The notes under the pieces were generated by a model. It saw only the letters and a list, made by a program, of their open reading frames with translations, was not told the origin of the DNA and searched no databases. Shown piece after piece: positions 11,214-31,964 of a stretch of DNA of 64,000 nucleotides; position 1 is the first letter of the stretch; each line of letters begins with the position of its first letter. The stretch is from NCBI RefSeq assembly GCF_009931435.1, contig NZ_CP043414.1; one strand, given 5' to 3'. Position numbers and translations under genes: made by a program. This DNA comes from Escherichia coli (GTDB taxonomy: Bacteria > Pseudomonadota > Gammaproteobacteria > Enterobacterales > Enterobacteriaceae).

Positions 11214-11307
11214 AACGCCTCCTTACACCTTCTTGTTTCTTAAGTGTACAGCAGGCTTTTTGGTTAAATCGCATTTTTCTGCTCAGCAAGGTGAGTTGTT
11301 CAGAAAC

Positions 11308-11687
<380 letters not shown>

Positions 11688-11688
11688 C

Positions 11689-12072
<384 letters not shown>

Positions 12073-12130
12073 ATTCTTCTCCCGAAAAAAAACAGGGCTT
12101 GCGCCCTGTTTCTTTAATACAGAGGATGTA

Positions 12131-12586
12131 TTAGTACTGATGAGCGGTCGCGTTGTTACCAAAGCCAACCTGAGTGACGTTAACGCTGGAGTTAGATGCA
12201 GTCTGGTCAACAGCAGCACCGTTACCGCCACCGAACTGTTTAACAGTCATAGTAGAATCTTTACCATTCCACTGATCAAGAGTGGCGCTGTTACCGAAGC
12301 CACGCTGAGTCAGATCGATTGAGCTGTCATCTGAGCCCTGACCAACATCTGCACCGTTACCACCGCCATGCTGGGTAATAGTCAAGTCAGAGTTACGGGC
12401 ATCAGTTTGCAGAGCAAGTGCAGAGTTACCGCCACCGTACTGGTAAATGTTCAGCTCTGAATTTGGGCCGCTATTATTACCGCCACCACCGTGGTTACCG
12501 CCGCCGCCGTACTGAGGAACAACACCTGCCAGAGCGCTACCAGAGAATACGATTGCTGCAATTGCTGCTACTTTTAAAAGTTTCAT
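12131..12586 (-). CDS. csgA: Major curlin subunit CsgA
   Basis: 151-aa ORF with signal peptide and five imperfect S-x5-Q-x-G-x-G-N-x-A-x3-Q amyloid repeats. Confidence 0.97.
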   Translation of the reverse strand: MKLLKVAAIAAIVFSGSALAGVVPQYGGGGNHGGGGNNSGPNSELNIYQYGGGNSALALQTDARNSDLTITQHGGGNGADVGQGSDDSSIDLTQRGFGNSATLDQWNGKDSTMTVKQFGGGNGAAVDQTASNSSVNVTQVGFGNNATAHQY

Positions 12587-12626
12587 GTAAAACCCCCATC
12601 GGATTGATTTAAAAGTCGAATGGAAA

Positions 12627-13082
12627 TTAACGTTGTGTCACGCGAATAGCCATTTGCGACTGTCTCTGCACTACAATTGCCGTTTTTTGAGTACCATACT
12701 GTGTAATATTTGCTTTATTACCAGAACCTTTCTGGATAATCATCGCAGTATTACCATAAGCACCTTGCGAAATACTGGCATCGTTGGCATTGCCCGCCTG
12801 ATCAATATATGCAAGGTTATAATCTCCTGTCTGGTCAATCTTTGCCCGGTTGCTACTACCTTCTTGCGCAACAACCGCCAAAAGTTTTGAGCCTCCCTGC
12901 CGTAACTGAGCACTATTATTAGTCCCAGCTTGACCAATTATGGCTGCCTGATTAAATGAAGACTTACTCAATTCATTTACCGCGAAGTTATATTCTGAAT
13001 TAGCTAAATCATAACCTGCTGCGGCTGCAATCCCAGGCGCACCCAGTATTGTTAACATCATAAATAACAATTTGTTTTTCAT
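12627..13082 (-). CDS. csgB: Minor curlin/nucleator subunit CsgB
   Basis: ORF 12627..13109; start at MKNKLLFMMLTILGAPGIAAA gives 151 aa; curlin repeat architecture. Confidence 0.95.
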   Translation of the reverse strand: MKNKLLFMMLTILGAPGIAAAAGYDLANSEYNFAVNELSKSSFNQAAIIGQAGTNNSAQLRQGGSKLLAVVAQEGSSNRAKIDQTGDYNLAYIDQAGNANDASISQGAYGNTAMIIQKGSGNKANITQYGTQKTAIVVQRQSQMAIRVTQR

Positions 13083-13837
13083 GTTGTCACCCTGGACCTG
13101 GTCGTACATTTAAGAAATTAAATCATTTCAACTTAGTTGTTAACGCAACCTGTATTTTGTTAACGCCGCGTTACGATGGAAAGTATGTCTGCGGAAATAT
13201 TTTTAATAACTCACCCGCGCGTTGTATTTTTCTTTTTTTGTTCATACCAAAGTATTAAAACCCACGTAAATACGCTGTTATCTACGCAAAAAAAATATTT
13301 TGTTTTCTTTTAAATTTCGGTTTTCCGCAATCAAAAATCACCAGACAGTCATTCTTCTTGCCCGTCGCTGATTGCTGCGATATGTCTTGCGCACAAGCCG
13401 TGACAAACCTCGTCTTTTTGCAGTAAAAAATTGTCCACGGAGGTGTGGAGAAAAAACAAGAACGTTTTACATGACGAAAGGACTACACCGAAATATTTTT
13501 TATATGCATTATTAGCAAGTTAGCACCATTTGTATGATTTTTTAAAATTGTGCAAGAAAAACCAAATGTACAACTTTTCTATCATTTCTAAACTTAATAA
13601 AACCTTAAGATTAACATTTTAATATAACAAGTTACATTTAGTTACATGTTTAACACTTGATTTAAGATTTGTAATGGCTAGATTGAAATCAGATGTAATC
13701 CATTAGTTTTATATTTTACCCATTTAGGGCTGATTTATTACTACACACAGCAGTGCAACATCTGTCAGTACTTCTGGTGCTTCTATTTTAGAGGCAGCTG
13801 TCAGGTGTGCGATCAATAAAAAAAGCGGGGTTTCATC
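13083..13837. promoter_or_regulatory. csgBAC / csgDEFG divergent intergenic control region (about 755 bp, AT-rich)
   Basis: Unusually long AT-rich non-coding region between divergent csgB and csgD starts; known from the literature to carry the csgD and csgB promoters and a long csgD 5' UTR. Individual sites not mapped here. Confidence 0.7.
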
Positions 13838-14488
<651 letters not shown>

Positions 14489-14492
14489 AGCC

Positions 14493-14882
14493 ATGAAACG
14501 TTATTTACGCTGGATTGTGGCGGCAGAATTCCTGTTCGCCGCAGGGAATCTTCACGCCGTTGAGGTAGAAGTCCCGGGCTTGTTAACTGACCATACTGTT
14601 TCATCAATTGGCCATGATTTTTACCGAGCCTTTAGTGATAAATGGGAAAGTGACTATACGGGTAACTTAACGATTAATGAAAGGCCCAGTGCACGATGGG
14701 GAAGTTGGATCACAATAACGGTCAATCAGGACGTTATTTTCCAGACTTTTTTATTCCCGTTGAAAAGAGACTTCGAAAAAACTGTCGTCTTTGCACTGAT
14801 TCAAACTGAAGAAGCACTAAATCGTCGCCAGATAAATCAGGCGTTATTGAGTACGGGCGATTTGGCGCATGATGAATTCTAA
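14493..14882 (+). CDS. csgE: Curli secretion specificity factor CsgE
   Basis: 129-aa ORF with signal peptide; position and sequence match CsgE. Confidence 0.93.
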
Positions 14883-14906
14883 ATAAAAAATTGTTCGGAG
14901 GCTGCA

Positions 14907-15323
14907 ATGCGTGTCAAACATGCAGTAGTTCTACTCATGCTTATTTCGCCTTTAAGTTGGGCTGGAACCATGACTTTCCAGTTCCGTAATCCAAACTTTG
15001 GTGGTAACCCAAATAATGGCGCTTTTTTATTAAATAGCGCCCAGGCACAGAACTCGTATAAAGATCCGAGCTATAACGATGACTTTGGTATTGAAACGCC
15101 ATCAGCGTTAGATAACTTTACCCAGGCCATCCAGTCACAAATTTTAGGTGGGCTACTGTCGAATATTAATACCGGTAAACCGGGCCGCATGGTGACCAAC
15201 GATTATATTGTCGATATCGCTAACCGCGATGGTCAATTGCAGTTGAATGTGACGGATCGCAAAACCGGACAAACCTCGACCATCCAGGTTTCGGGTTTAC
15301 AAAATAACTCAACCGATTTTTAA
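14907..15323 (+). CDS. csgF: Curli assembly component CsgF
   Basis: 138-aa ORF with signal peptide ([19 protein letters not shown]); recognised as CsgF. Confidence 0.93.
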
Positions 15324-15349: not shown

Positions 15350-16183
15350 ATGCAGCGCTTATTTCTTTTGGTTGCCGTCATGTTACTGAGCGGATGCTTA
15401 ACCGCCCCGCCTAAAGAAGCCGCCAGACCGACATTAATGCCTCGTGCTCAGAGCTACAAAGATTTGACCCATCTGCCAGCGCCGACGGGTAAGATCTTTG
15501 TTTCGGTATACAACATTCAGGACGAAACCGGGCAATTTAAACCCTACCCGGCAAGTAACTTCTCCACTGCTGTTCCGCAAAGCGCCACGGCAATGCTGGT
15601 CACGGCATTGAAAGATTCTCGCTGGTTTATACCGCTGGAGCGCCAGGGCTTACAAAACCTGCTTAACGAGCGCAAGATTATTCGTGCAGCACAAGAAAAC
15701 GGCACGGTTGCCATTAATAACCGAATCCCGCTGCAATCTTTAACGGCGGCAAATATCATGGTTGAAGGTTCGATTATCGGTTATGAAAGCAACGTTAAAT
15801 CGGGCGGTGTTGGGGCAAGATATTTTGGGATCGGTGCCGACACGCAATACCAGCTCGATCAGATTGCCGTGAACCTGCGTGTCGTCAATGTGAGTACCGG
15901 TGAGATCCTCTCCTCGGTGAACACCAGTAAGACGATACTTTCCTATGAAGTTCAGGCGGGGGTCTTCCGCTTTATTGACTACCAGCGCTTGCTGGAAGGG
16001 GAAGTAGGTTACACCTCGAACGAACCCGTTATGCTGTGCCTGATGTCGGCTATCGAAACAGGCGTCATTTTCCTGATTAATGATGGTATCGACCGCGGTC
16101 TTTGGGATTTGCAGAACAAAGCAGAACGGCAGAATGACATTCTGGTGAAATACCGCCATATGTCGGTTCCACCGGAATCCTGA
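15350..16183 (+). CDS. csgG: Curli secretion channel lipoprotein CsgG
   Basis: 277-aa ORF with lipobox (LLSGC); recognised as CsgG. Confidence 0.95.
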   Translation: MQRLFLLVAVMLLSGCLTAPPKEAARPTLMPRAQSYKDLTHLPAPTGKIFVSVYNIQDETGQFKPYPASNFSTAVPQSATAMLVTALKDSRWFIPLERQGLQNLLNERKIIRAAQENGTVAINNRIPLQSLTAANIMVEGSIIGYESNVKSGGVGARYFGIGADTQYQLDQIAVNLRVVNVSTGEILSSVNTSKTILSYEVQAGVFRFIDYQRLLEGEVGYTSNEPVMLCLMSAIETGVIFLINDGIDRGLWDLQNKAERQNDILVKYRHMSVPPES

Positions 16184-19381: not shown

Positions 19382-19469
19382 GGTGAGGTGTCCGAGTGGC
19401 TGAAGGAGCACGCCTGGAAAGTGTGTATACGGCAACGTATCGGGGGTTCGAATCCCCCCCTCACCGCCA
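19382..19469 (+). tRNA. serX: tRNA-Ser (anticodon GGA), serX-type
   Basis: 88-nt sequence GGTGAGGTGTCCGAGTGGCTGAAGG...CCTGGAAA...GGTTCGAATCCCCCCCTCACCGCCA with long variable arm and encoded CCA. Confidence 0.95.
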
Positions 19470-19935
19470 TCTTTAAAGAAGAGCTCGTACGAAAGTACGG
19501 GCTTTTTTTTCGTATATTGCACACACCGGGGGGATGAGAAGCCCCGACAGGGGTTCGACAACTGGCGACAGCCAGTTGGACAGACCGTGAACGCAGTGAG
19601 CGGGCTGCCCGCAGGGCGAGCGAAGCGAGTCAATCCCCCCCTCACCGCCATCTTTAAAGAAGAGCTCGTACGAAAGTACGGGCTTTTTTTTTGTATATTG
19701 CACACACCGGGGGGATGAGAAGCCCCGACAGGGGTTCGACAACTGGCGACAGCCAGTTGGACAGACCGTGAACGCAGTGAGCGGGCTGCCCGCAGGGCGA
19801 GCGAAGCGAGTCAATCCCCCCCTCACCGCCATCTTTAAAGAAGAGCTCGTACGAAGGTACGGGCTTTTTTTTCGTATATTGCACACACCGGGGGATGAAA
19901 AGCCCCGACCGGGGTTCGACAACTGGCGACAAACT
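19461..19935. repeat. About 2.6 tandem copies of a ~181-bp unit, each carrying the serX 3'-terminal ~20 nt plus the terminator hairpin
   Basis: The string tcaccgccatctttaaagaagagctcgtacgaaagtacgggc recurs at about 19461, 19642 and 19823; copies 1 and 2 are near-identical, copy 3 is truncated and diverged; each unit also has an 8-bp palindrome caactggc-gaca-gccagttg. Confidence 0.85.
19482..19510 (+). terminator. Rho-independent terminator of serX (gctcgtac-gaaa-gtacgggc + T8)
   Basis: Hairpin followed by 8 T residues immediately 3' of the tRNA; repeated in each downstream repeat unit. Confidence 0.75.
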
Positions 19936-21392
19936 CAATCATCATCCTTGCAGTTGATAAGAATTTCTGCCTCTTTTACAACTATCTTATTACGTCCGGT
20001 TTCTTTCGCTTCATATAGTGCATTATCAGCCATTCGATAGATTTCATTCGGATTTAACGCACTTCCCTGAGTCACCACAGCGCCAATGCTAATCGTCACT
20101 TTTTGCGGTATGGCGTATTCAGGATTATCGCCTGTCAAACGCTCTACATTTGCCCTTATCCTTTCGGCTAAAACTTTCGCGCTTTCAGTATCGGTCTCCG
20201 TCAGCAAGACGCCAAACTCTTCGCCGCCAACGCGTGCTAAAAGGTCATTTGGTCGTATGCTTTTCCCAATGATGCTCACCACTGTTTTTATCACCTGATC
20301 GCCAACCGGATGCCCCCACGTATCGTTAACTTTTTTAAAGTGATCGATATCCATAATCATGACACAATAAGACGTTTTTTGGGCTGATGCTGATTGAGCC
20401 TTCAGTTCATTGAAAAAATAATTCCTGTTAAATATATTAGTTAATGGATCGCGATGGGCAATGTTCTTTGTTACTCGTAGCGCACTGAAAATATGGCACA
20501 TAAATATTACCATAACGGTTAATTTACTGACTACTTCAATAGTGCGGCTAATATACCAAGTGGACACACTATACCTGCTCATAAATAACAGAGAGATATT
20601 ATACAGCACGGCACAGAAAGCAATCACTGATACTCCATTCCAGATATCACAGCGTAAACCATTAAAGTATAGATTAACCAAAAGCAAGATTAACCACATG
20701 AAAATTATTATGGTAACATATGAGGTTTTCCAGACTACCTGACCATTTTCATTTGTTAACTCGGCAATATGTAAACTGTAGTCATCATAATGACTACTTA
20801 GCATGTGAGCAACTGCCGCCCCCCCATAAATAAAAAATAGGCTTATACACAATGTCATTTTTTTGGAAAAAAAACAGCGTTTCTTATTGTTTTCACTAAC
20901 TTTATTCACCAGCGCTAGCAATATTAACATGCACAAACTCATCTGACGAAACAAATAATAAATTGCAATATCATTTTGTACAACGCTGCTTATCAAATGC
21001 CCCTCAATAAATTGCTGAATGATAATGACAGTTTTAACAAAGTAAATCAAACAACTCAGAAACGCTAAACTAAGTATACAGTTTGAAAATTGCACACGAT
21101 CATAAATGAAATACAATTGCATGAAAATAAATGCAACGGTATCGATAAAAAATAAAGCAATCATAACCATTAGATAGGTTGATCGTGGAACAACCTCCTC
21201 AACGGTTGGCTGATTAAACCAACTATTTACCAAAACGAATGCAAGCCCAAACAATAAGCTCACCAATACAGTACTACTAATTCCCAAATAGTCTTTTTCC
21301 ATAAAGCTACACCAATCTGTAGGTTGTAGATCCCTTTCTGTCACTAATAGATATAAGAACTGTACTGTTGTCAATATAAAAATCCACCACAA
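19935..21392 (-). CDS. dgcT: Membrane-anchored diguanylate cyclase DgcT (YcdT), GGDEF domain
   Basis: 485-aa ORF beginning at a TTG codon; first in-frame ATG (MEKDYLG...) would give 455 aa. N-terminal multi-TM region plus C-terminal GGDEF with intact GGEEF motif. AT-rich gene. Confidence 0.88.
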   Translation of the reverse strand: MWWIFILTTVQFLYLLVTERDLQPTDWCSFMEKDYLGISSTVLVSLLFGLAFVLVNSWFNQPTVEEVVPRSTYLMVMIALFFIDTVAFIFMQLYFIYDRVQFSNCILSLAFLSCLIYFVKTVIIIQQFIEGHLISSVVQNDIAIYYLFRQMSLCMLILLALVNKVSENNKKRCFFSKKMTLCISLFFIYGGAAVAHMLSSHYDDYSLHIAELTNENGQVVWKTSYVTIIIFMWLILLLVNLYFNGLRCDIWNGVSVIAFCAVLYNISLLFMSRYSVSTWYISRTIEVVSKLTVMVIFMCHIFSALRVTKNIAHRDPLTNIFNRNYFFNELKAQSASAQKTSYCVMIMDIDHFKKVNDTWGHPVGDQVIKTVVSIIGKSIRPNDLLARVGGEEFGVLLTETDTESAKVLAERIRANVERLTGDNPEYAIPQKVTISIGAVVTQGSALNPNEIYRMADNALYEAKETGRNKIVVKEAEILINCKDDD

Positions 21393-21657
21393 ACAATACC
21401 AATGATGATAGTTGCAGACCGCAATTATTATTACCTTAGTGCTTTATACATTCTTCGCGACAAGACAGGCTTGCAAATACATATAAATGGTTATAAGGAA
21501 ATCCTTATAAAACATTAATTCATAGATATATTAGGAATAACAATTGAATCCGTGAGTACAGTAACGCTGCATTTCATCAGGACTTTCGAAAAATCCGATA
21601 TCATGCATCGGAATTTACTGATTTAATTATTTTAATCCTAATTTATTTTGAAAAAGG

Positions 21658-21894
21658 CATTGGAATTTATGCCGTATTCCTGAAGTTCCTCATCATTGGA
21701 ATGGATTTTCGGGCGAGAAAAGGATTTTATATGGATACTCTACTCATCATTTCTTCTTCTCATCATCAACAATTCACGTCTCTCTTCCGCGTTTAATAAC
21801 GGATTATGATGTGCATAAAAAATATCTTTCGTTTCAGTTACCTGTAATTAGATACAGAGAGAGATTTTGGCAATACATGGAGTAATACAGGATG
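21658..21894 (+). promoter_or_regulatory. pgaA 5' leader with GGA motifs (candidate CsrA binding sites) including one over the start codon
   Basis: GGA-containing motifs at about 21801, 21877 and acaGGAtg overlapping the ATG at 21892; leader extent taken from published knowledge of pgaABCD regulation, not mapped here. Confidence 0.45.
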
Positions 21895-24315
21895 TATTCA
21901 AGTAGCAGAAAAAGGTGCCCGAAAACCAAATGGGCTTTGAAAATTCTTACTGCCGCATTTTTAGCAGCGAGTCCCGCGGCGAAGAGTGCTGTTAATAATG
22001 CCTATGATGCATTGATTATCGAAGCTCGCAAGGGAAATACTCAGCCAGCTTTGTTATGGTTTGCACAAAAATCAGCACTCAGTAATAACCAAATTGCTGA
22101 CTGGTTACAGATTGCCTTATGGGCCGGGCAAGATAAACAGGTTATTACCGTTTACAACCGCTACCGTCATCAGCAATTACCAGCGCGTGGTTATGCAGCT
22201 GTCGCCGTCGCTTATCGTAACCTGCAACAATGGCAAAACTCGCTTACACTGTGGCAAAAGGCACTCTCTCTGGAGTCGCAAAATAAGGATTATCAACGGG
22301 GACAAATTTTAACCCTGGCAGATGCGGGTCACTATGATTCTGCGCTGGTTAAACTTAAGCAGCTTAACTCTGGAGCACCGGACAAAGCTAATTTACTCGC
22401 AGAAGCCTATATCTATAAACTGGCGGGGCGGCATGAGGATGAATTACGGGCGATGACAGGGTCATTACCTGAAAATGCCTTAACGCAACAATATCCCACA
22501 GAATACGTGCAGGCATTACGGAATAATCAACTTGCTGCCGCGATTGACGATGCCAATTTAACGCCAGATATTCGCGCTGATATTCATGCCGAACTGGTCA
22601 GACTGTCGTTTATGCCTACGCGCAGTGAAAGTGAACGTTATGCCATTGCCGATCGCGCCCTCGCCCAATACGCTGCATTAGAAATTCTGTGGCATGATAA
22701 CCCTGACCGCACTGCCCAGTACCAGCGTATTCAGGTTGATCATCTTGGCGCGTTATTAACTCGCGATCGTTATAAAGACGTTATTTCTCACTATCAGCGT
22801 TTAAAAAAGACGGGGCAAATTATTCCGCCCTGGGCGCAATATTGGGTTGCGTCGGCTTATCTCAAAGAACATCAGCCAAAAAAAGCACAGTCAATAATGA
22901 CAGAGATCTTTTATCACAAGGAGACCATTGCCCCGGATTTATCCGATGAAGAACTTGCGGATCTCTTTTACAGCCACCTGGAGAGTGAAAATTATCCCGG
23001 CGCGCTAACTGTCACCCAACATACCATTAATACTTCGCCGCCTTTCCTTCGGTTAATGGGCACGCCTACGAGCATCCCGAATGATACCTGGTTACAGGGG
23101 CATTCGTTTCTCTCAACCGTAGCAAAATATAGTAATGATCTTCCTCAGGCTGAAATGACAGCCAGAGAGCTTGCTTATAACGCACCAGGAAATCAGGGAC
23201 TGCGCATTGATTACGCGAGTGTGTTACAAGCCCGCGGTTGGCCTCGTGCGGCAGAAAATGAATTAAAAAAAGCAGAAGTGATCGAGCCACGTAATATTAA
23301 TCTGGAGGTTGAACAAGCCTGGACAGCATTAACGTTACAAGAATGGCAGCAGGCAGCGGTCTTAACGCACGATGTTGTCGAACGTGAACCGCAAGATCCC
23401 GGCGTTGTACGTTTAAAACGTGCGGTTGATGTACATAATCTTGCAGAGCTTCGTATCGCTGGTTCAACAGGAATTGATGCCGAAGGTCCGGATAGTGGCA
23501 AACATGATGTCGACTTAACCACCATCGTTTATTCACCACCGCTGAATGATAACTGGCGCGGTTTTGCTGGATTCGGTTATGCCGATGGACAATTTAGCGA
23601 AGGAAAAGGGATTATTCGCGACTGGCTTGCGGGTGTTGAGTGGCGGTCACGTAATATCTGGCTTGAGGCGGAGTACACCGAACGCTTTTTCAATCATGAG
23701 CATAAACCCGGCGCGCGCCTGTCTGGCTGGTATGATTTTAATGATAACTGGCGTATTGGTTCGCAACTGGAACGCCTCTCTCACCGCGTTCCATTACGGG
23801 CAATGAAAAATGGTGTTACAGGCAACAGTGCACAGGCTTATGTTCGCTGGTATCAAAATGAGCGGCGTAAGTACGGTGTCTCTTGGGCTTTCACTGATTT
23901 TTCTGACAGTAATCAGCGTCATGAAGTCTCACTTGAGGGTCAGGAACGCATCTGGTCTTCACCATATTTGATTGTCGATTTCCTCCCCAATCTGTATTAC
24001 GAACAAAATACAGAACACGACACCCCATACTACAACCCTATAAAAATGTTCGATATTGTTCCGGCATTTGAGGCAAGTCATTTGTTATGGCGAAGCTATG
24101 AAAATAGCTGGGAGCAAATCTTCAGCGCAGGTGTTGGTGCCTCCTGGCAAAAACATTATGGCACGGATGTCGTCACCCAACTCGGCTACGGGCAACGCAT
24201 TAGCTGGAATGACGTGATTGATGCTGGCGCAACGCTACGCTGGGAAAAACGACCTTATGACGGTGACAGAGAACACAACTTATACGTTGAATTCGATATG
24301 ACATTCAGATTTTAA
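21892..24315 (+). CDS. pgaA: PGA (poly-beta-1,6-N-acetylglucosamine) outer-membrane export porin PgaA
   Basis: 807-aa ORF with signal peptide, TPR-like N-terminal half and beta-barrel C-terminus ending in F; recognised as PgaA. Confidence 0.95.
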   Translation: MYSSSRKRCPKTKWALKILTAAFLAASPAAKSAVNNAYDALIIEARKGNTQPALLWFAQKSALSNNQIADWLQIALWAGQDKQVITVYNRYRHQQLPARGYAAVAVAYRNLQQWQNSLTLWQKALSLESQNKDYQRGQILTLADAGHYDSALVKLKQLNSGAPDKANLLAEAYIYKLAGRHEDELRAMTGSLPENALTQQYPTEYVQALRNNQLAAAIDDANLTPDIRADIHAELVRLSFMPTRSESERYAIADRALAQYAALEILWHDNPDRTAQYQRIQVDHLGALLTRDRYKDVISHYQRLKKTGQIIPPWAQYWVASAYLKEHQPKKAQSIMTEIFYHKETIAPDLSDEELADLFYSHLESENYPGALTVTQHTINTSPPFLRLMGTPTSIPNDTWLQGHSFLSTVAKYSNDLPQAEMTARELAYNAPGNQGLRIDYASVLQARGWPRAAENELKKAEVIEPRNINLEVEQAWTALTLQEWQQAAVLTHDVVEREPQDPGVVRLKRAVDVHNLAELRIAGSTGIDAEGPDSGKHDVDLTTIVYSPPLNDNWRGFAGFGYADGQFSEGKGIIRDWLAGVEWRSRNIWLEAEYTERFFNHEHKPGARLSGWYDFNDNWRIGSQLERLSHRVPLRAMKNGVTGNSAQAYVRWYQNERRKYGVSWAFTDFSDSNQRHEVSLEGQERIWSSPYLIVDFLPNLYYEQNTEHDTPYYNPIKMFDIVPAFEASHLLWRSYENSWEQIFSAGVGASWQKHYGTDVVTQLGYGQRISWNDVIDAGATLRWEKRPYDGDREHNLYVEFDMTFRF

Positions 24316-24323
24316 GGATAAAT

Positions 24324-26342
24324 ATGTTACGTAATGGAAATAAATATCTCCTGATGCTGGTGAGTATAATTATGCTCACTGCGTGCATTAGCCAGTCAAG
24401 AACATCATTTATACCGCCACAGGATCGCGAATCTTTACTCGCCGAGCAACCGTGGCCGCATAATGGTTTTGTGGCGATTTCATGGCATAACGTTGAAGAC
24501 GAAGCTGCCGACCAGCGTTTTATGTCAGTGCGGACATCAGCACTGCGTGAACAATTTGCCTGGCTGCGCGAGAACGGTTATCAACCGGTCAGTATTGCTC
24601 AAATTCGTGAAGCACATCGAGGAGGAAAACCGCTACCGGAAAAAGCAGTAGTGCTGACTTTTGATGACGGCTACCAGAGTTTTTATACCCGCGTCTTCCC
24701 AATTCTTCAGGCCTTCCAGTGGCCTGCTGTATGGGCCCCCGTCGGCAGTTGGGTCGATACGCCAGCGGATGAACAAGTAAAATTTGGCGATGAGATGGTC
24801 GATCGAGAATATTTTGCCACGTGGCAACAAGTGCGAGAAGTTGCGCGTTCCCGGCTCGTTGAGGTCGCTTCTCATACATGGAATTCTCACTACGGTATTC
24901 AGGCTAATGCCACCGGCAGCTTATTGCCTGTATATGTAAATCGTGCATATTTTACTGACCACGCACGGTATGAAACCGCAGCAGAATACCGGGAAAGAAT
25001 GCGTCTGGATGCTGTAAAAATGACGGAATACCTGCGTACAAAGGCTAAGGTAAATCCACACGTTTTTGTTTGGCCTTATGGTGAAGCGAATGGCATAGCG
25101 ATAGAGGAATTAAAAAAACTCGGTTATGACATGTTCTTCACCCTTGAATCAGGTTTGGCAAATGCGTCACAATTGGATTCCATTCCGCGAGTATTAATCG
25201 CCAATAATCCCTCATTAAAAGAGTTTGCCCAGCAAATTATTACCGTACAGGAAAAATCATCACAACGGGTAATGCATATCGATCTTGATTACGTTTATGA
25301 CGAAAACCGCCAGCAAATGGATCGCAATATTGATGTGCTAATTCAGCGGGTGAAAGATATGCAAATATCAACCGTGTATTTGCAGGCATTTGCTGATCCC
25401 GATGGTGATGGGCTGGTCAAAGAGGTCTGGTTTCCAAATCGTTTGCTACCAATGAAAGCAGATATTTTTAGTCGGGTTGCCTGGCAATTACGTACCCGCT
25501 CAGGTGTAAACATCTATGCGTGGATGCCGGTATTAAGCTGGGATTTAGATCCCACATTAACGCGAGTAAAATATTTACCAACAGGGGAGAAAAAAGCACA
25601 AATTCATCCTGAACAATATCGCCGTCTATCTCCTTTTGATGACAGGGTCAGAGCACAAGTTGGCATGTTATATGAAGATCTTGCCGGACATGCTGCTTTT
25701 GATGGCATATTGTTCCACGATGATGCTTTGCTTTCAGATTATGAAGATGCCAGTGCACCGGCTATCACGGCTTATCAGCAAGCAGGCTTTAGCGGGAGTC
25801 TGAGCGAAATTCGACAAAACCCGGAGCAATTTAAACAGTGGACCCGCTTTAAAAGTCGTGCGTTAACTGACTTCACTTTAGAACTTAGTGCGCGCGTAAA
25901 AGCCATTCGCGGTCCACATGTTAAAACTGCACGAAATATTTTTGCACTTCCGGTAATACAACCTGAAAGTGAAGCCTGGTTTGCACAGAATTATGCTGAT
26001 TTCCTAAAAAGCTATGACTGGACCGCTATTATGGCTATGCCTTATATGGAAGGTGTCGCAGAAAAATCGGCTGACCAATGGTTAATACAATTGACCAATC
26101 AAATTAAAAACATCCCTCAGGCTAAAGACAAATCTATTTTAGAATTACAGGCACAAAACTGGCAGAAAAATGGTCAGCATCAGGCTATTTCTTCGCAACA
26201 ACTCGCTCACTGGATGAGCCTATTACAACTGAATGGAATGAAAAACTATGGTTATTATCCCGACAATTTTCTGCATAACCAACCTGAAATAGACGTTATT
26301 CGTCCTGAGTTTTCAACAGCCTGGTATCCGAAAAATGATTAA
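24324..26342 (+). CDS. pgaB: PGA N-deacetylase lipoprotein PgaB
   Basis: 672-aa ORF with lipobox (MLTAC) and polysaccharide deacetylase motif (TFDDGY). Confidence 0.95.
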
Positions 26343-27660
26343 TCGCATCGTATCGTTTTTTATATTATGTCTGGTGTTATGCATACCCCTATGCGTAGCG
26401 TACTTTCACTCTGGTGAACTGATGATGAGGTTCGTTTTCTTCTGGCCGTTTTTTATGTCCATTATGTGGATTGTTGGCGGCGTCTATTTCTGGGTATATC
26501 GTGAACGCCACTGGCCGTGGGGAGAAAACGCACCAGCTCCCCAGTTGAAAGATAATCCGTCTATCTCCATTATCATTCCCTGTTTTAATGAGGAGAAAAA
26601 CGTTGAGGAAACCATACACGCCGCTTTAGCACAGCGTTATGAGAACATTGAAGTTATTGCCGTAAATGACGGTTCAACAGACAAAACCCGTGCCATCCTG
26701 GATCGCATGGCTGCACAAATTCCCCACCTGCGGGTCATTCATCTGGCGCAAAACCAGGGGAAAGCCATTGCGCTTAAAACCGGAGCTGCCGCGGCGAAAA
26801 GTGAATATCTGGTGTGCATTGATGGCGATGCGTTATTAGACCGCGATGCGGCGGCATATATTGTGGAACCGATGTTGTACAACCCGCGTGTGGGTGCCGT
26901 AACCGGTAATCCTCGTATTCGAACACGTTCTACCCTGGTGGGTAAAATTCAGGTTGGCGAGTATTCCTCAATTATTGGTTTGATCAAGCGAACCCAGCGT
27001 ATCTATGGAAACGTATTTACCGTTTCTGGTGTTATTGCCGCATTTCGTCGCAGCGCCCTGGCAGAAGTGGGTTACTGGAGTGACGATATGATCACCGAAG
27101 ATATTGATATTAGCTGGAAGCTGCAGTTGAATCAGTGGACGATTTTTTACGAGCCACGGGCGCTGTGCTGGATATTAATGCCTGAAACGTTAAAAGGGCT
27201 GTGGAAACAGCGCCTGCGCTGGGCTCAGGGCGGTGCAGAAGTATTCCTCAAAAATATGACAAGGCTATGGCGCAAAGAAAACTTTCGAATGTGGCCACTG
27301 TTTTTTGAATACTGTCTGACGACAATATGGGCCTTTACCTGCCTGGTCGGTTTCATTATTTACGCAGTCCAACTTGCAGGTGTACCGTTAAATATTGAAT
27401 TGACACATATCGCTGCGACACATACTGCCGGAATATTATTGTGTACGTTATGTTTACTGCAATTTATTGTCAGCCTGATGATCGAGAATCGCTATGAGCA
27501 TAATCTGACTTCATCGCTTTTCTGGATTATTTGGTTCCCGGTTATTTTCTGGATGCTGAGCCTGGCAACGACATTGGTATCATTTACACGAGTCATGTTG
27601 ATGCCTAAAAAGCAACGCGCCCGTTGGGTAAGTCCCGATCGAGGGATTCTGAGAGGTTAA
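26335..27660 (+). CDS. pgaC: PGA synthase glycosyltransferase (GT2) PgaC
   Basis: 441-aa ORF with GT2 motifs (DGD, QRLRW); 8-nt overlap with pgaB. Confidence 0.95.
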
Positions 27661-27661
27661 T

Positions 27662-28075
27662 ATGAACAATTTAATTATTACGACCCGACAATCGCCAGTA
27701 CGTTTAATGGTTGATTATGTTGCCACAACCATCTTATGGACATTATTTGCTTTGTTCATATTCTTATTCACCATGGATCTGCTGACGGGTTATTACTGGC
27801 AAAGTGAGGCCAGAAGCCGACTTCAGTTCTATTTTTTGCTGGCAGTGGCGAATGCCGTCGTGTTAATTGTCTGGGCGCTGTACAATAAGCTGCGTTTTCA
27901 AAAACAGCAGCATCATGCAGCCTACCAATATACGCCGCAAGAATATGCAGAGAGCTTAGCAATACCTGATGAGCTCTATCAGCAACTACAAAAAAGCCAC
28001 AGGATGAGCGTACACTTCACCAGCCAGGGGCAAATAAAAATGGTTGTTTCAGAAAAAGCGCTAGTCCGGGCATAA
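27662..28075 (+). CDS. pgaD: PGA synthesis accessory membrane protein PgaD
   Basis: 137-aa ORF with two TM segments, immediately after pgaC. Confidence 0.92.
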
Positions 28076-28088
28076 ACACCCAAAACAA

Positions 28089-28107
28089 AGCCCGGTTCGC
28101 CCGGGCT
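28089..28107. terminator. Hairpin (gcccgg-ttcgc-ccgggc) between convergent pgaD and phoH
   Basis: 6-bp GC stem; on the minus strand it is followed by a T-rich run, so likely the phoH terminator and possibly bidirectional. Confidence 0.5.
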
Positions 28108-28124
28108 CTGCGCCGATAATACAC

Positions 28125-29189
28125 TTAACTGTATGCATGTAGCGTACGTTGGCAAAGTGCCGAACGTACGCAATCCTCTTTACCGAATCGGACGATCCCG
28201 ACCATTTCATCTTCTTCGAAACGTTCCAGCGCGTCACTTAATCCGGAGCGCACGCCGCGAGGCAAATCGCATTGCGTGATATCACCGTTGACGATAACCG
28301 TCACGTTCTCCCCGAGGCGGGTTAAAAACATTTTCATTTGCGCGGCAGTCACATTCTGCGCCTCGTCAAGAATGACGACTGCATTTTCAAAGGTACGTCC
28401 ACGCATATAGGCGAACGGCGCGATTTCCACCTTCCCTATTTCCGGTCGCAGGCAGTACTGCATAAAGGAAGCCCCTAAGCGCCGGACCAGCACGTCGTAG
28501 ACCGGACGAAAATAGGGAGCAAACTTTTCTGCGATATCTCCAGGTAAGAAGCCAAGATCTTCATCGGCTTGCAGAACTGGACGGGTGACGATAATCCTGT
28601 CGACATCCTTATGTATCAGGGCCTCTGCCGCTTTTGCTGCGCTGATCCAGGTTTTTCCGCACCCGGCTTCGCCGGTGGCGAATATCAGCTGCTTACTCTC
28701 AATAGCCTTCAGATAGTGCAATTGCGCTTCATTTCGCGCGAGGATGGGCGAGGTATCGCGACTGTCGCGGGCCATACCAATGGCTTCTACGCCGCTCATC
28801 TGCACAAGCGAGGTGACCGATTCTTCTTCACGCTGCTTATGGCTGCGCGAATCCCGTCTCAGCACACGTTTTGCCTCGCGACGAGCTTTGATCACTGCTT
28901 TTTGTCTTCCCATGGAGAGCACCTTGAGTTGTTTGTATTCATCACACGCGCCGTTGGCAGCGCGATTATGCGCACGAACATCAGAGGGTTGGCTTCCTTG
29001 TAAGCCATAGTTTGCTTTTGGATAAAATGCCGAAAAACGGCTACGCGCACCGTTTACGGCGTCGGTAACACATGAAAAGAAAGGTTGAGGTTGAAAATGC
29101 AAAGTGACGAGATGACTACCGGAGGAGAAATCTCCGCGAGTGGTGGAGCGTTGCTTAACAAAACATTGTCCAGTACAGGACGTTACCAT
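28125..29189 (-). CDS. phoH: Phosphate-starvation-inducible ATPase PhoH (PsiH)
   Basis: 354-aa ORF with Walker A (GEAGCGKT); recognised as PhoH. Confidence 0.95.
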   Translation of the reverse strand: MVTSCTGQCFVKQRSTTRGDFSSGSHLVTLHFQPQPFFSCVTDAVNGARSRFSAFYPKANYGLQGSQPSDVRAHNRAANGACDEYKQLKVLSMGRQKAVIKARREAKRVLRRDSRSHKQREEESVTSLVQMSGVEAIGMARDSRDTSPILARNEAQLHYLKAIESKQLIFATGEAGCGKTWISAAKAAEALIHKDVDRIIVTRPVLQADEDLGFLPGDIAEKFAPYFRPVYDVLVRRLGASFMQYCLRPEIGKVEIAPFAYMRGRTFENAVVILDEAQNVTAAQMKMFLTRLGENVTVIVNGDITQCDLPRGVRSGLSDALERFEEDEMVGIVRFGKEDCVRSALCQRTLHAYS

Positions 29190-29387: not shown

Positions 29388-29552
29388 TTCGCATCAGGCA
29401 TCAACGCACGAACGCCGGATGCGGCGTGACCGCCTTATCCTGCCTACCAAACCCGCACCGATTGTAGGCATGATAAGACGCGCAAGCGTCGCATCAGGCA
29501 TCAGCGCACGAGCGCACGAACGCCTGGTACGGCGTAAACGCCTTATACGCCT
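29388..29552. repeat. REP/BIME cluster between phoH upstream region and efeB 3' end
   Basis: Several REP-like palindromic units (gccggatgcggcgtgaccgccttatcc, tgtaggcatgataagacgcg..., gcatcaggca). Confidence 0.6.
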
Positions 29553-29559
29553 AAAAACA

Positions 29560-30831
29560 TTAAACCCGCAATAATGCGCTTCCGAGATAATCGCTCGCGT
29601 CCTTCACCCCCGGCAGCGCAAAAAAATAACCGCCGCCGATGGGTTTAACGTATTCCTCCAGCGCTTCACCATTGAGCCTTTTTTGTACTGTCAGGAAGCC
29701 CTTTTCCAGATCGTGTTGGTAGCAGACAAACAGCAACCCCATATCCAGTTGCCCGGAATTGGTGACGCCCAACGAATAACTGTAGCCACGACGCAGCATC
29801 AGGCTGGACTCGCTCTCCGCCGTGCGGGGATTCGCCAGCCGGATATGGCTGTCCAGCGCGATCACCTTCCCTTCCGGATCACTGGCATAATCGGGAACAT
29901 CATGCTCATGCTGCATTCCCAGCGGCGCACCGGTTTGCTTATCGCGACCAAAAATTGTCTGCTGTTCTTTCAGCGGCGTTCTGTCCCAAAATTCCACTCG
30001 AAACTGAATCAAACGCACCGCCTGGTAGCTGCCACCGATTGTCCACGCAGGCTCCTGCTGATCTGCCGTTACCCACACCACTTTTTGCATCAACTTATCA
30101 TTCTGGCTATCGGGATTGGCAGTGCCGTCTTTGAAACCCAGCAAATTAATCGGCGTCTCTTTGCCTTTACTACGCGCTGCGTGATCGGAAATAAACCCTT
30201 CCCGCTTCCAGCGCACACTGAGCAAATCCGGCGTATGTTTGATGATATCGCGCAGCGCATGGATCACCGTGTCCTGGGTGTTGGCGCAAATTTGTAGCAA
30301 CACATCACCATGACATAACGCCGCATCCAGCGAGTCGTTGGGGAAACGCGTCATCTTCTGCAACTTTTTCGGCATCTGTGGCGCAAGACCAAACCGTTCA
30401 TCAAACAACGAGTGACCAACTGACAACGTGATGGTGAGATTGTCGGGCGCAATGTAGCCGCCAAGAATGCCGGAATCGAGTGGTGGCAGGCGCGGATTTG
30501 GCGTTTCTGGTGCTGCTCCGCCCTGAGTCAGAAAAGCAAAACGCTGAGTCAACAAGCGAAACAATCGCTCAAGATCAGCTTTATCGCTGGCAAGCACATC
30601 AAACGCCACCAGCATCATTGCCGCCTGCTGCGGCGTCAGAATACCCGCCTGATGTTCGCCATAAAACGGCTGCGCTTCACTGCGCGCATCCGGTGAAAGC
30701 GTCCCCGGCGCACTTTGCGTTTTTTGAGCATGCGCTACCGGACAACTTCCTGCCAGTGCCAGCGCGCCAATCCCTTTCAGTAAACGTCGGCGTGACGGTT
30801 CATTCACGCCGTTTTCATCTTCATACTGCAT
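29560..30831 (-). CDS. efeB: Dye-decolorizing (DyP) peroxidase / deferrochelatase EfeB, Tat-secreted
   Basis: 423-aa ORF with twin-arginine signal ([17 protein letters not shown]); recognised as EfeB/YcdB. Confidence 0.95.
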
Positions 30832-30836
30832 AACGC

Positions 30837-31964
30837 TTAATCCAGTCCCAGCACACCACGAAGTTGCGCCAGATCTTCCGCCAGCGCAGTAATCGGCCCT
30901 TTCAGCGCATTACGGTCGGCATCGGTCAGCTTGTCGTAAGTTTCATAACCGTCTTTGGTTCGGTATTTCGCCAGAATGGTATCTACCTTTTTGAAGTTGG
31001 CATCGACTTTTGCCAGCAGTTCCGGGTTGGCTTTTTGCAGTTGCGGACGCAGCAGATCGACAATTTTCTGCGAGCCTTCAACGTTAGCCTGGAAGTCCCA
31101 CAGATCGGTGTGGCTGTAGCGATCTTCTTCACCGCTGATTTTGCTGGCTGCCACTTCCTCAATCAGTCCGGCTGCGCCGCCGACCACTTTTGAAGGTGGG
31201 AAAGCCAGTTCACTGATCCGTTTTTGTAAATCGACCACATCGGTATAAAGCTGGTCAGCATACTGATCCATTCCTTTGGTGGTGTTGTCGCCAAACAATG
31301 CTTTTTCCAGACGGTGGAAACCGGTGAATTTCGGATCGCCGGCTTTTTGCTCGTAATCATCTTCACGGGCGTCAATGCTACCATCCAGATCAGAGAACAG
31401 CTCAGCAATCGGTTCAATGCGCTCATAGTGCTGGCGCGTCGGCGCATACAGTGCTTTCGCTTTTTCGATATCGCCTGCTTTAATAGCGTCGGTAAATGCT
31501 TTGGTGTCGGTCACCAGCTGCGTGGTTTCCGCCATGACATACGCTTTATATGCAGTAATTGCACCACCAAGACTTAACAGCGCATCACTTTGCGTCGCAT
31601 CCGCCGTTGCTTCACCTTTAACGATCAACTTCCCTTTCGGGTTAGTCAGCAGACCGCAGGTCATATCGTATTCGCCAGGCTGTAAATTCGCCGTCATTTT
31701 CTGGCTAAAACCAGGGGCGATATTTTCCCGCTCTTCCACCACCATCACGCCTTTGAGGATCTCCCACTCCAGCGCCTTCTGGCTGTGGTTCTGAATAATG
31801 AACTGTGTTTTCCCGGCGTTAACCGTAATGGTCATCGGTTCGCACTGTTTATCCGTCACGGTCACTTTGACCTGCGGAACATCAGCAGCGTTAGCCATAA
31901 AAGCAGAGGAGAACAGCGCAGCCACGCTTAATTGCAGTGCACTATGGCGGAAGTTAATGGTCAT
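30837..31964 (-). CDS. efeO: Periplasmic iron uptake protein EfeO (cupredoxin + M75 peptidase-like)
   Basis: 375-aa ORF with signal peptide; recognised as EfeO/YcdO. Confidence 0.95.

Follow-up and report, generated by a model that had tools for sequence, protein, structure and literature searches.

The E. coli genes for synthesis and export of the exopolysaccharide PGA, poly-beta-1,6-GlcNAc (pgaABCD), lie beside dgcT, a gene for a membrane GGDEF protein that is read in the opposite direction. Are dgcT and pgaABCD a single unit, acquired, moved and used together, or is the cyclase a mere neighbour of the operon? We examined this arrangement in a 64,000-nucleotide stretch of E. coli DNA (hereafter the window, meaning the whole stretch that was analysed). 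By sequence comparison, the region matched the E. coli csg-ycdZYX-ghrA-serX-dgcT/pgaABCD-phoH-efeB locus, with dgcT on the minus strand divergent from pgaABCD on the plus strand, serX and ghrA on one side and phoH on the other. A preliminary description of this DNA had named the dgcT-pgaABCD genes and placed them on the sequence; the open reading frames were found at those positions, and the Pfam and locus matches agree with the assignments. The features that define the locus are as follows:

19382–19469, plus strand: serX, tRNA-Ser(GGA), with its 3' end towards the module (ARAGORN; Rfam tRNA, 53.8 bits; annotated in E200086 and K-12)
19451–19931, plus strand: RtT-like tandem repeat of 181 bp, 2.7 copies, left border of the island (TRF score 927, 98% matches)
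19935–21302, minus strand: dgcT (ycdT), 455 aa with the ATG start at 21302 (open reading frame; Pfam MASE4 and GGDEF)
21892–24315, plus strand: pgaA, outer-membrane PGA export porin, 807 aa (PgaA_barrel, 2e-137; K-12 length)
24324–26342, plus strand: pgaB, PGA N-deacetylase/hydrolase lipoprotein, 672 aa (GHL13, 1e-144; Polysacc_deac_1, 2e-23)
26335–27660, plus strand: pgaC, GT2 PGA synthase, 441 aa (Glycos_transf_2, 2e-39)
27662–28075, plus strand: pgaD, small membrane partner of PgaC, 137 aa (PgaD Pfam, 1e-15)
28076–28081, no strand: right border of the island (BLAST; homology to AR_0077 (L032) restarts at 28082, inside the phoH terminator hairpin)

A probable dgcT-pgaABCD islet between serX and phoH

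The pgaABCD operon is intact: its four genes are co-oriented, tightly packed and of K-12 length, with an 8-nt overlap between pgaB and pgaC and a 1-nt gap between pgaC and pgaD. BLAST comparison with the module-less strain AR_0077 gave an island extent of about 19932–28081, and the ends of the module are fixed by an alternative occupant of the same site, a DUF2726 gene. On the left side, 466 bp separate the dgcT stop codon from serX, and repeats of the tRNA 3' end fill the space between them. Each repeat unit opens with the final 19 nt of serX, behind which come a hairpin and a T-run; the last copy breaks off 3 nt short of the dgcT stop. The sequence AATCCCCCCCTCACCGCCA is present in three exact copies in the array, versus none expected. 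Two copies matched the Rfam RtT family over its full length (E 1.8e-5) with 41.7 bits, just below the gathering score of 45, and RefSeq annotates the same locus of another genome (H92) as 'RtT sRNA (x4)'; the K-12 array comprises about 3.4 copies. The array resembles the tyrT distal 178-bp repeats and RtT RNA (RF00391) in being built of ~180-bp tandem repeats behind a tRNA gene, each opening with the tRNA 3' end, and differs from them in its sub-gathering score, in its position behind serX and in forming the border of an island. That the module adjoins the serX tRNA and RtT-like repeats had been overlooked in the preliminary description.

Within 19932–28081, neither the open reading frames nor the Pfam matches included an integrase or mobility gene. 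Flanking direct repeats were not found either: the 19-nt tRNA 3' end, searched for at the right border, is present on the left side only. A direct repeat/dgcT junction is common to the window and CFT073; in the latter, a copy of the tRNA-derived core of the repeat array is found where the island abutting dgcT has its integrase end, and the integrase adjoining dgcT in CFT073 is part of that separate island. Taking the explanation as a whole, we consider it highly probable that 19932–28081 is an 8.15-kb low-GC E. coli dgcT-pgaABCD islet set between the serX RtT-like repeats and the phoH terminator. The low-GC island reading of the module is already published (PMC4951805), as is the rest of the dgcT-pgaABCD biology met here, namely joint repression by CsrA and c-di-GMP binding by PgaC/PgaD.

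The K-12 ycdT(dgcT)-pgaABCD locus (b1021–b1025) shares with the window its genes, their order and orientation, the lengths of pgaA to pgaD, the phoH-adjacent site, the pgaA leader with all of its GGA motifs and the dgcT start codon. The two loci differ in that IS3D, ymdE' and ycdU separate dgcT from the serX repeats in K-12, and in the DgcT protein itself, which is just 90% identical and whose C-terminal tail of 8 residues in K-12 is not that of the window (452 aa versus 455 aa).

DgcT is a predicted diguanylate cyclase starting at an ATG codon

The dgcT product matches the MASE4 (PF17158; E 6.3e-64, profile positions 5–238 of 239) and GGDEF (PF00990; E 3.7e-50) Pfam families. Its membrane domain has eight hydrophobic segments on a Kyte-Doolittle plot, and eight helices are reported for the MASE4-type domain (PMC4287979). 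The A-site motif GGEEF is intact at residues 359–363, as had been noted before, and so is the I-site (RxxD), RPND at residues 350–353, five residues upstream of the A-site. Cyclase activity of K-12 DgcT/YcdT is reported to have been verified (PMC3484386); from its identity to this enzyme, the window protein is a predicted diguanylate cyclase. E. coli DgcX and CdgI (YeaI) have the same MASE4-GGDEF architecture (PMC4287979, PMC5635695) and match DgcT at 37–47% identity; unlike dgcT, they are not beside pga, a Citrobacter homologue being found at the yeaG-yeaH-yeaI-yeaJ position.

The start of dgcT had been described as ambiguous between a TTG (485 aa) and an ATG (455 aa), a choice said to affect the N-terminal membrane topology. 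Two features are concerned:

21303–21392, minus strand: rejected 30-codon TTG extension, corresponding to the dgcT leader/promoter region (allele comparison)
21303–21891, no strand: divergent regulatory region, 589 bp, GC 0.333 (ATG-based dgcT start)

The TTG at 21392 (open reading frame 19935–21392, 485 aa) is placed out of frame by a 1-nt indel in K-12, CFT073 and O157, and E. fergusonii and a cryptic lineage of Escherichia (L005) both have in-frame stops 5' of the ATG. A second in-frame TTG, 24 codons before the ATG, is open in the E. coli alleles, but stop codons close it in L005 and E. fergusonii; a further reason for rejecting it was its overlap with a conserved TTGACA at 21369–21374 in the leader/promoter region. 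Between this second TTG and the ATG, all substitutions seen among the alleles would alter an amino acid. The start Met at 21302 is kept in every allele lineage examined, and this ATG is also the choice of RefSeq in the nearest genomes. The indel, the upstream stops and the conserved Met all favour the ATG: the predicted start of dgcT is this codon, giving 455 aa, and the 485-aa TTG model is, on allele comparison, an ORF-extension artefact. The question of N-terminal topology therefore falls away, and the 485-aa model is unsuitable for topology or annotation of DgcT.

The regulatory region between the two transcription units had been given as ~500 bp including the pgaA leader. The leader is indeed there; the length was TTG-based (499 bp) and becomes 589 bp with the ATG. 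The pgaA-proximal ~240 nt, which form the leader, retain all eight K-12 GGA motifs, and a single conserved GGA motif (AAGGGAUC) lies about 31 nt before the dgcT ATG, all nine at K-12-equivalent positions. A single CsrA consensus site is reported for ycdT (PMC6028588), and the literature describes repression of both the pgaA and dgcT mRNAs by CsrA. Both leaders carry candidate CsrA sites in the form of these GGA motifs, one of them near the ribosome-binding site. A simple promoter scan returned 3 sites versus 3.2 expected, and our literature search found no transcription start data for dgcT.

dgcT and pgaABCD are found and mobilised together

Among 5426 complete E. coli genomes, pgaC is present in 4381 and dgcT in 4166; about 215 genomes, or about 5% of the pgaC carriers, have pgaC with no dgcT match. 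Wherever a DgcT orthologue (at least 62% identity) was found, dgcT and pgaABCD are together: the order is efeB-phoH-pgaDCBA-dgcT-cadC in E. fergusonii, and the linkage is kept, adjacent to phoH, in L005. The MASE4-GGDEF proteins of Enterobacter and Citrobacter (42–44% identity) are not encoded adjacent to pga. The low GC and the presence or absence among strains support the reading as an acquired island, and the same site in E. fergusonii and the cryptic lineage fits an old acquisition, in line with the earlier suggestion of an anciently acquired module.

A block equal to window positions 19863–28274 was found on Salmonella plasmid-like contigs, which carry IncFII RepA, TraI, TraX or Rep3/CcdAB, and a fec-associated island of E. 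coli has the same block ends as this mobilised Salmonella copy. An 8.4-kb copy of the module, apparently derived from a chromosome, seems now to reside on plasmids and also in a second island of E. coli; as judged from sequence, dgcT and pgaABCD are mobilised jointly as one block. The plasmid context rests on the Salmonella contigs: the 'plasmid' matches in PLSDB at 95–98% identity come for the most part from very large records that are probably chromosomes, and were excluded as evidence. The exact borders and the co-mobilisation provide comparative support for dgcT and pgaABCD as one unit, a point on which K-12 genetics is unconvincing.

Does DgcT serve PGA synthesis?

That PgaC/PgaD respond to c-di-GMP, as the preliminary description stated, is already published: c-di-GMP binds PgaC/PgaD and activates PGA synthesis. 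R222 of PgaC, listed as a c-di-GMP contact (PMC10333796), is kept as Arg at residue 222 of the window protein. In the mechanism that we propose, DgcT would give c-di-GMP to the adjacent PgaCD once CsrA repression is lifted and a membrane signal is received at MASE4, and would act as an accessory source, the main source in K-12 being DgcZ. We give about an even chance that DgcT supplies PgaCD when so derepressed and signalled. To call DgcT a dedicated cyclase for PGA, as had been done, is overstated. In K-12, DgcT is under the detection limit, and the c-di-GMP pool of a pdeH mutant owes nothing to it (PMC5635695); ycdT, according to work cited in PMC4951805, is co-regulated with pga without a link between its function and pga expression.

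These K-12 data favour an alternative that we regard as somewhat less probable than supply by DgcT: dgcT would be a passenger, linked to pgaABCD by adjacency only and acting on other outputs such as motility, while DgcZ and others control PGA. The pgaC-bearing genomes that are devoid of dgcT are consistent with such a passenger, as is the increased motility of a K-12 ycdT deletion mentioned in the discussion of PMC3484386. In the same study, deletion of ycdT in CFT073 decreased biofilm in one medium, an effect that the study did not tie to PGA. However, a passenger does not readily explain why the linkage has been retained in four independent genomic contexts, one of them a mobilised block, whereas the DgcT paralogues are not pga-linked; moreover, the pgaA and dgcT mRNAs are both CsrA targets, and the dN/dS of 0.16 for dgcT points to a gene that is maintained.

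Supply of c-di-GMP by DgcT would have a parallel in Yersinia pestis, in which hmsHFRS and HmsT likewise combine a PGA-type operon with a membrane GGDEF cyclase on which its output depends. The requirement of HmsT for Y. pestis biofilm has been demonstrated, and hmsT is not known to adjoin hmsHFRS; in contrast, what the window shows is the adjacency of dgcT and pga. ycdT has been described as an hmsT homologue (PMC4951805).

The low GC content is most marked in dgcT, pgaA and pgaB

The module has a GC content of 0.434, versus 0.501 for the left flank and 0.519 for the right flank. As the preliminary description had observed, dgcT (0.373) and pgaA to pgaD (0.43–0.47) are more AT-rich than ghrA (0.515) and phoH (0.520); the GC content of the dgcT-pgaA intergenic region is 0.333. 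The lowest-GC gene of the module is dgcT (GC3 0.379), with z scores of −2.9 for GC and −2.1 for GC3 relative to the 45 other open reading frames of the window, only one of which is lower in GC. The proposed GC and codon-usage check came out in part as expected: GC3 is distinct for dgcT, pgaA (0.42) and pgaB (0.38), whereas pgaC (0.49) and pgaD (0.48) are inside the spread of the window. The compositional island signal is therefore strong for dgcT, pgaA and pgaB and weak for pgaC and pgaD.

The values for pgaC and pgaD, together with the likewise low GC1 (0.419) and GC2 (0.320) of dgcT, would agree with a low GC that stems from gene content, i.e., membrane proteins rich in Ile, Phe, Leu, Lys and Asn and an AT-rich control region, rather than from foreign origin. 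We consider this improbable: protein composition cannot account for the GC3 of dgcT, pgaA and pgaB (0.38–0.42), far under the window median of 0.57, and some strains carry the module while others lack it, its borders being sharp and its site having an alternative occupant. Deviant base composition and GC3, strain-dependent presence with defined ends and adjacency to a tRNA gene are the features of a genomic island that we found for the dgcT-pgaABCD islet.

A rare and divergent dgcT allele

Sequence comparison delimited one further feature:

19932–21600, no strand: hyperdivergent block, comprising dgcT together with the half of the intergenic region that adjoins it

This block is 84–93% identical to K-12, CFT073 and O157, versus 97–100% for its flanks. 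The window dgcT allele is rare, being found at 99% identity or more in 16 of the 5426 complete genomes, with 4147 genomes at 80–95%; by contrast, pgaC is matched at 99% or more in 2286 genomes. Compared to the common alleles, the window dgcT has a dS of 0.37 and a dN/dS of 0.16, whereas dS is 0.02–0.08 for the neighbouring pgaA to pgaD, phoH and ghrA and 0.01–0.09 among the common dgcT alleles themselves. The high dS combined with a low dN/dS indicates that the window dgcT and its promoter side are a rare deep-branching allele, probably imported by homologous recombination and under purifying selection. The putative donor lineage would be roughly as far removed as a different Escherichia species is. 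Positive selection was considered as the source of the divergence and ruled out by the dN/dS of 0.16. It is quite unlikely that the allele evolved in place through local hypermutation or through selection that was relaxed or positive, as might be supposed from dgcT varying more than any other gene of the locus in each comparison and from its dN/dS of 0.42 between K-12 and CFT073, because the excess divergence is synonymous, the right edge of the block is sharp near 21600, and a mosaic mobilised copy (L038) has a dgcT 3' half 98.8% identical to the window next to pgaA and pgaB at 68–87%.

DgcT falls into at least six deep allele classes (62–94% protein identity), of which the window has a rare one, and every pair tested is under purifying selection. 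We tentatively suggest, as a possibility that we hold to be rather doubtful, that the dgcT-pgaA-pgaB end is an allele-replacement hotspot in Escherichia; the 8.4-kb mobile copy of the module could shuttle these alleles. If selection maintains this diversity, a difference between alleles in what is sensed or exposed by the cell would be expected: the MASE4 domains might read different signals, or PgaA, being exposed at the surface, might be under pressure from phages or immunity, with dgcT carried along by hitch-hiking. dgcT is unusually polymorphic, so that what is found with the K-12 allele may not hold in strains of this kind. The rarity and deep divergence of the dgcT allele of this strain had previously gone unnoticed. 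A scan of the genome contigs with the DgcT peptide returned one full-length relative, the other 26 loci being matched through the GGDEF domain only.

Composition of the dgcT-pgaABCD module

The window matches the E. coli chromosome order csg-ycdZYX-ghrA-serX-dgcT/pgaABCD-phoH-efeB (megablast). The open reading frames of dgcT (ycdT, minus strand) and of the divergent pgaABCD operon (plus strand) were found where the preliminary description had placed them, and their products belong to the expected Pfam families. The intact GGEEF motif that it had reported lies at residues 359-363 of the translated DgcT, with an RxxD I-site (RPND) five residues before it. GC and GC3 analyses likewise bore out that the module is AT-rich relative to its flanks.

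Base composition and Pfam families
Module, 19935-28075: GC 0.434
Left flank: GC 0.501
Right flank: GC 0.519
dgcT: GC 0.373, GC3 0.379; MASE4 (6e-64) and GGDEF (4e-50)
dgcT-pgaA intergenic region: GC 0.333
pgaA: GC 0.469, GC3 0.421; PgaA_barrel (2e-137)
pgaB: GC 0.443, GC3 0.380; Polysacc_deac_1 and GHL13
pgaC: GC 0.465, GC3 0.491; GT2 family
pgaD: GC 0.432, GC3 0.478; PgaD

In composition, dgcT (GC z -2.9 against the 45 other window ORFs), pgaA and pgaB stand out strongly; pgaC and pgaD do so weakly, their GC3 falling inside the spread of window ORFs. Low GC is not confined to the pga module, as a cluster of small ORFs at 11300-15300, upstream of a csgG-like ORF (15350-16183, curli region), is AT-rich too (0.42-0.45). 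The lowest-GC ORF of the window, of 417 aa (48596-49849, minus strand; GC 0.344, GC3 0.294), is a further candidate for acquired DNA.

The module is a variable unit adjoining serX

On its left, the module adjoins a tRNA gene and a repeat array, the latter forming the border:

19382-19469: serX, tRNA-Ser (GGA)
19451-19931: 181-bp tandem repeat, 2.7 copies, after serX

The last 19 nt of serX open every repeat copy (three exact copies, none expected), and each copy carries a hairpin and a T-run. Rfam RtT aligns with the repeat from end to end, scoring 41.7 bits, slightly below the gathering score of 45, and RefSeq annotates "RtT sRNA (x4)" at the equivalent site in another genome. Strains differ in copy number, with ~3.4 copies in K-12 and one fewer than the window in strain E200086. 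The final copy is truncated, ending at 19931 and so 3 nt short of the dgcT stop codon. A 119-aa mechanical ORF within the array (19473-19832, minus strand) is probably not a gene.

In E. coli AR_0077, a DUF2726 gene replaces the module. Homology to the window stops within the repeats at ~19913-19931 and restarts at 28082, in the phoH terminator; these break points define a variable unit of ~19932-28081, nearly equal to the span first proposed (19935-28075). No integrase gene is encoded within this unit, and no tRNA-end repeat was found on its right side. In CFT073, a separate large island has its tyrosine integrase at the end facing dgcT, with 278 bp between the integrase and the stop codon of dgcT. 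Part of the tRNA-derived core (CCCCCTCACCGCCA) is duplicated beside this integrase (CFT073 stretch L003 5860-6000, equivalent to window ~19813-19935), so that the repeats may serve as attachment sites. Other strains differ at this position: K-12 carries IS3D, ymdE' and ycdU between dgcT and the repeats, and O157 an EAL-domain gene. The serX side is an already known variable spot; pgaABCD-ycdT-ymdE-ycdU has previously been called "what appears to be a genome island" between efeB/phoH and ghrA/ycdXYZ (PMC4951805).

dgcT is linked to pgaABCD and moves with it

Among 5426 complete E. coli genomes, 4381 carry pgaC and 4166 dgcT. For DgcT orthologues of at least 62% identity, pgaABCD was adjacent in every case found; it is not adjacent to the Enterobacter and Citrobacter MASE4-GGDEF proteins (42-44% identity).

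Module arrangements outside the E. coli locus
E. fergusonii: efeB-phoH-pgaDCBA-dgcT-cadCBA
L005 (E. coli-labelled cryptic Escherichia lineage): matches the E. fergusonii module
Salmonella, two contigs with plasmid genes (IncFII RepA, TraI, TraX; or Rep3, CcdAB): dgcT-pgaABCD
E. coli island by fecCDE and IS fragments (L038): dgcT-pgaABCD

In the Salmonella and fec-island copies, the block has common ends (window 19863/19865 and 28266/28274). Remnants of the flanks persist in each: 69 bp from the serX repeat and some 140-150 bp from the 3' end of phoH. These scraps indicate that the whole module, dgcT included, was captured from a chromosome. The conserved linkage supports, short of proof, a dgcT-pgaABCD functional unit. 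PgaD is 152 aa long in L005 and in the Salmonella plasmid copy versus 137 aa in the window, with a different C-terminal tail.

The window carries a divergent dgcT allele

Window DgcT is only 90% identical to that of K-12. Nucleotide identity to K-12, CFT073 and O157 is 84-93% over ~19.9-21.6 kb, whereas the flanks and pgaA-D reach 97-100%.

Synonymous divergence
dgcT, window versus K-12, CFT073 or O157: dS 0.36-0.37, dN/dS 0.15-0.17
dgcT, common alleles versus each other: dS 0.01-0.09
pgaA-D, phoH and ghrA, window versus K-12: dS 0.02-0.08
ghrA and pgaC, E. coli versus L005 lineage: dS 0.35-0.37

At dS 0.37, the window dgcT is thus as distant as E. coli is from the L005 lineage at ghrA and pgaC. 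Only 16 of the 5426 genomes hold a dgcT at least 99% identical to it (80-95% in 4147), in contrast to pgaC (at least 99% in 2286). The simplest reading of these comparisons is that of an old allele, imported by recombination and still under purifying selection. Sequence searches yielded no donor; protein searches returned a ladder of E. coli-labelled DgcT alleles, the Salmonella plasmid type (85%) and E. fergusonii (64%). In L005, dS is 0.84-1.3 for dgcT, pgaA and pgaB and 0.12-0.37 for pgaC, pgaD, ghrA and phoH, and the fec-island copy is mosaic: the 3' half of its dgcT is 98.8% identical to the window, but its pgaA and pgaB 68-87%. This contrast and this mosaic make it likely that segments have been exchanged repeatedly at the dgcT-pgaAB end.

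The dgcT start codon

The dgcT start had been described as ambiguous. Both TTG 21392 (485 aa) and ATG 21302 (455 aa) are indeed open in the window; allele comparison settles the choice, predicting a start at the ATG. The TTG is simply the first start-type codon past a stop, and four lines of evidence oppose it: (i) in K-12, CFT073 and O157, the interval from TTG to ATG is one base longer, which puts the TTG out of frame; (ii) in L005 and E. fergusonii, the ATG is preceded by in-frame stops (13-14 codons away in L005); (iii) every allele lineage compared keeps this Met and the residues that follow it; and (iv) over the 72 nt that separate a second in-frame TTG from the ATG, window and K-12 differ at only 3 positions, compared with some 10% for the coding sequence, and all changes seen among alleles would alter amino acids. 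This stretch fits a conserved leader rather than coding sequence. It contains TTGACA, conserved out to E. fergusonii, and a single GGA motif, as expected for a CsrA site (PMC6028588); the literature yielded no published dgcT transcription start. DgcT starting at the ATG has eight hydrophobic segments, and eight helices are reported for the MASE4-type domain (PMC4287979). With eight segments, the N-terminus and the GGDEF domain would lie on the same, cytoplasmic, side.

DgcT and the control of PGA synthesis

In K-12, PGA synthesis reportedly depends mainly on the cyclase DgcZ/YdeH, a finding attributed to Boehm et al. in 2009 that weighs against a dedicated role for DgcT. That PgaC/PgaD respond to c-di-GMP agrees with the literature: c-di-GMP binds PgaC/PgaD, with PgaC R222 as a contact, and PNAG synthesis is thereby controlled (PMC10333796); R222 is present in the window PgaC. 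The proposal of a dedicated cyclase fared less well, since K-12 DgcT is below detection and, in a pdeH mutant, contributes nothing to the c-di-GMP pool (PMC5635695), and since ycdT, co-regulated with pga, is not linked to pga expression according to work cited in PMC4951805. These observations leave room for dgcT as a passenger of the module. Conversely, a PGA role was proposed for ycdT on grounds of position (PMC4287979), and ycdT, ydeH and pgaA are all CsrA-repressed (PMC3971182, PMC8323549, PMC6028588). Deletion of ycdT in CFT073 reduces biofilm in no-salt LB, a defect rescued by WspR (PMC3484386). On the account favoured here, DgcT would be an accessory, local c-di-GMP source for PgaCD, CsrA-gated and signal-dependent; we hold this role and the passenger model to be about equally probable. 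The module itself is real, its biology is already known and its earlier interpretation is partly right; the co-mobilised block and the rare, apparently imported dgcT allele are modest additions.

The phoH neighbourhood

A second patch of raised divergence covers efeB/efeO (29500-31000), 86-95% identical to K-12 and 93-96% to E200086, although the latter is 99-100% identical across the module; it is probably another recombination tract. A strong Rfam Ysr251 match (192.8 bits; 28130-28323, plus strand), antisense to the phoH 3' end, may reflect mere conservation of the phoH coding sequence. In the phoH-efeB spacer (29397-29500, minus strand), naRNA4 (REP-like elements) matches weakly, below threshold. 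The phoH ORF (28125-29189, minus strand) encodes 354 aa; newer RefSeq records give 262 aa. Window and K-12 do not agree in the opening 12 residues of the long form (MVTSCTGQCFVK and MVTSCTGHVLDN, respectively), which suggests that the long N-terminus is untranslated.
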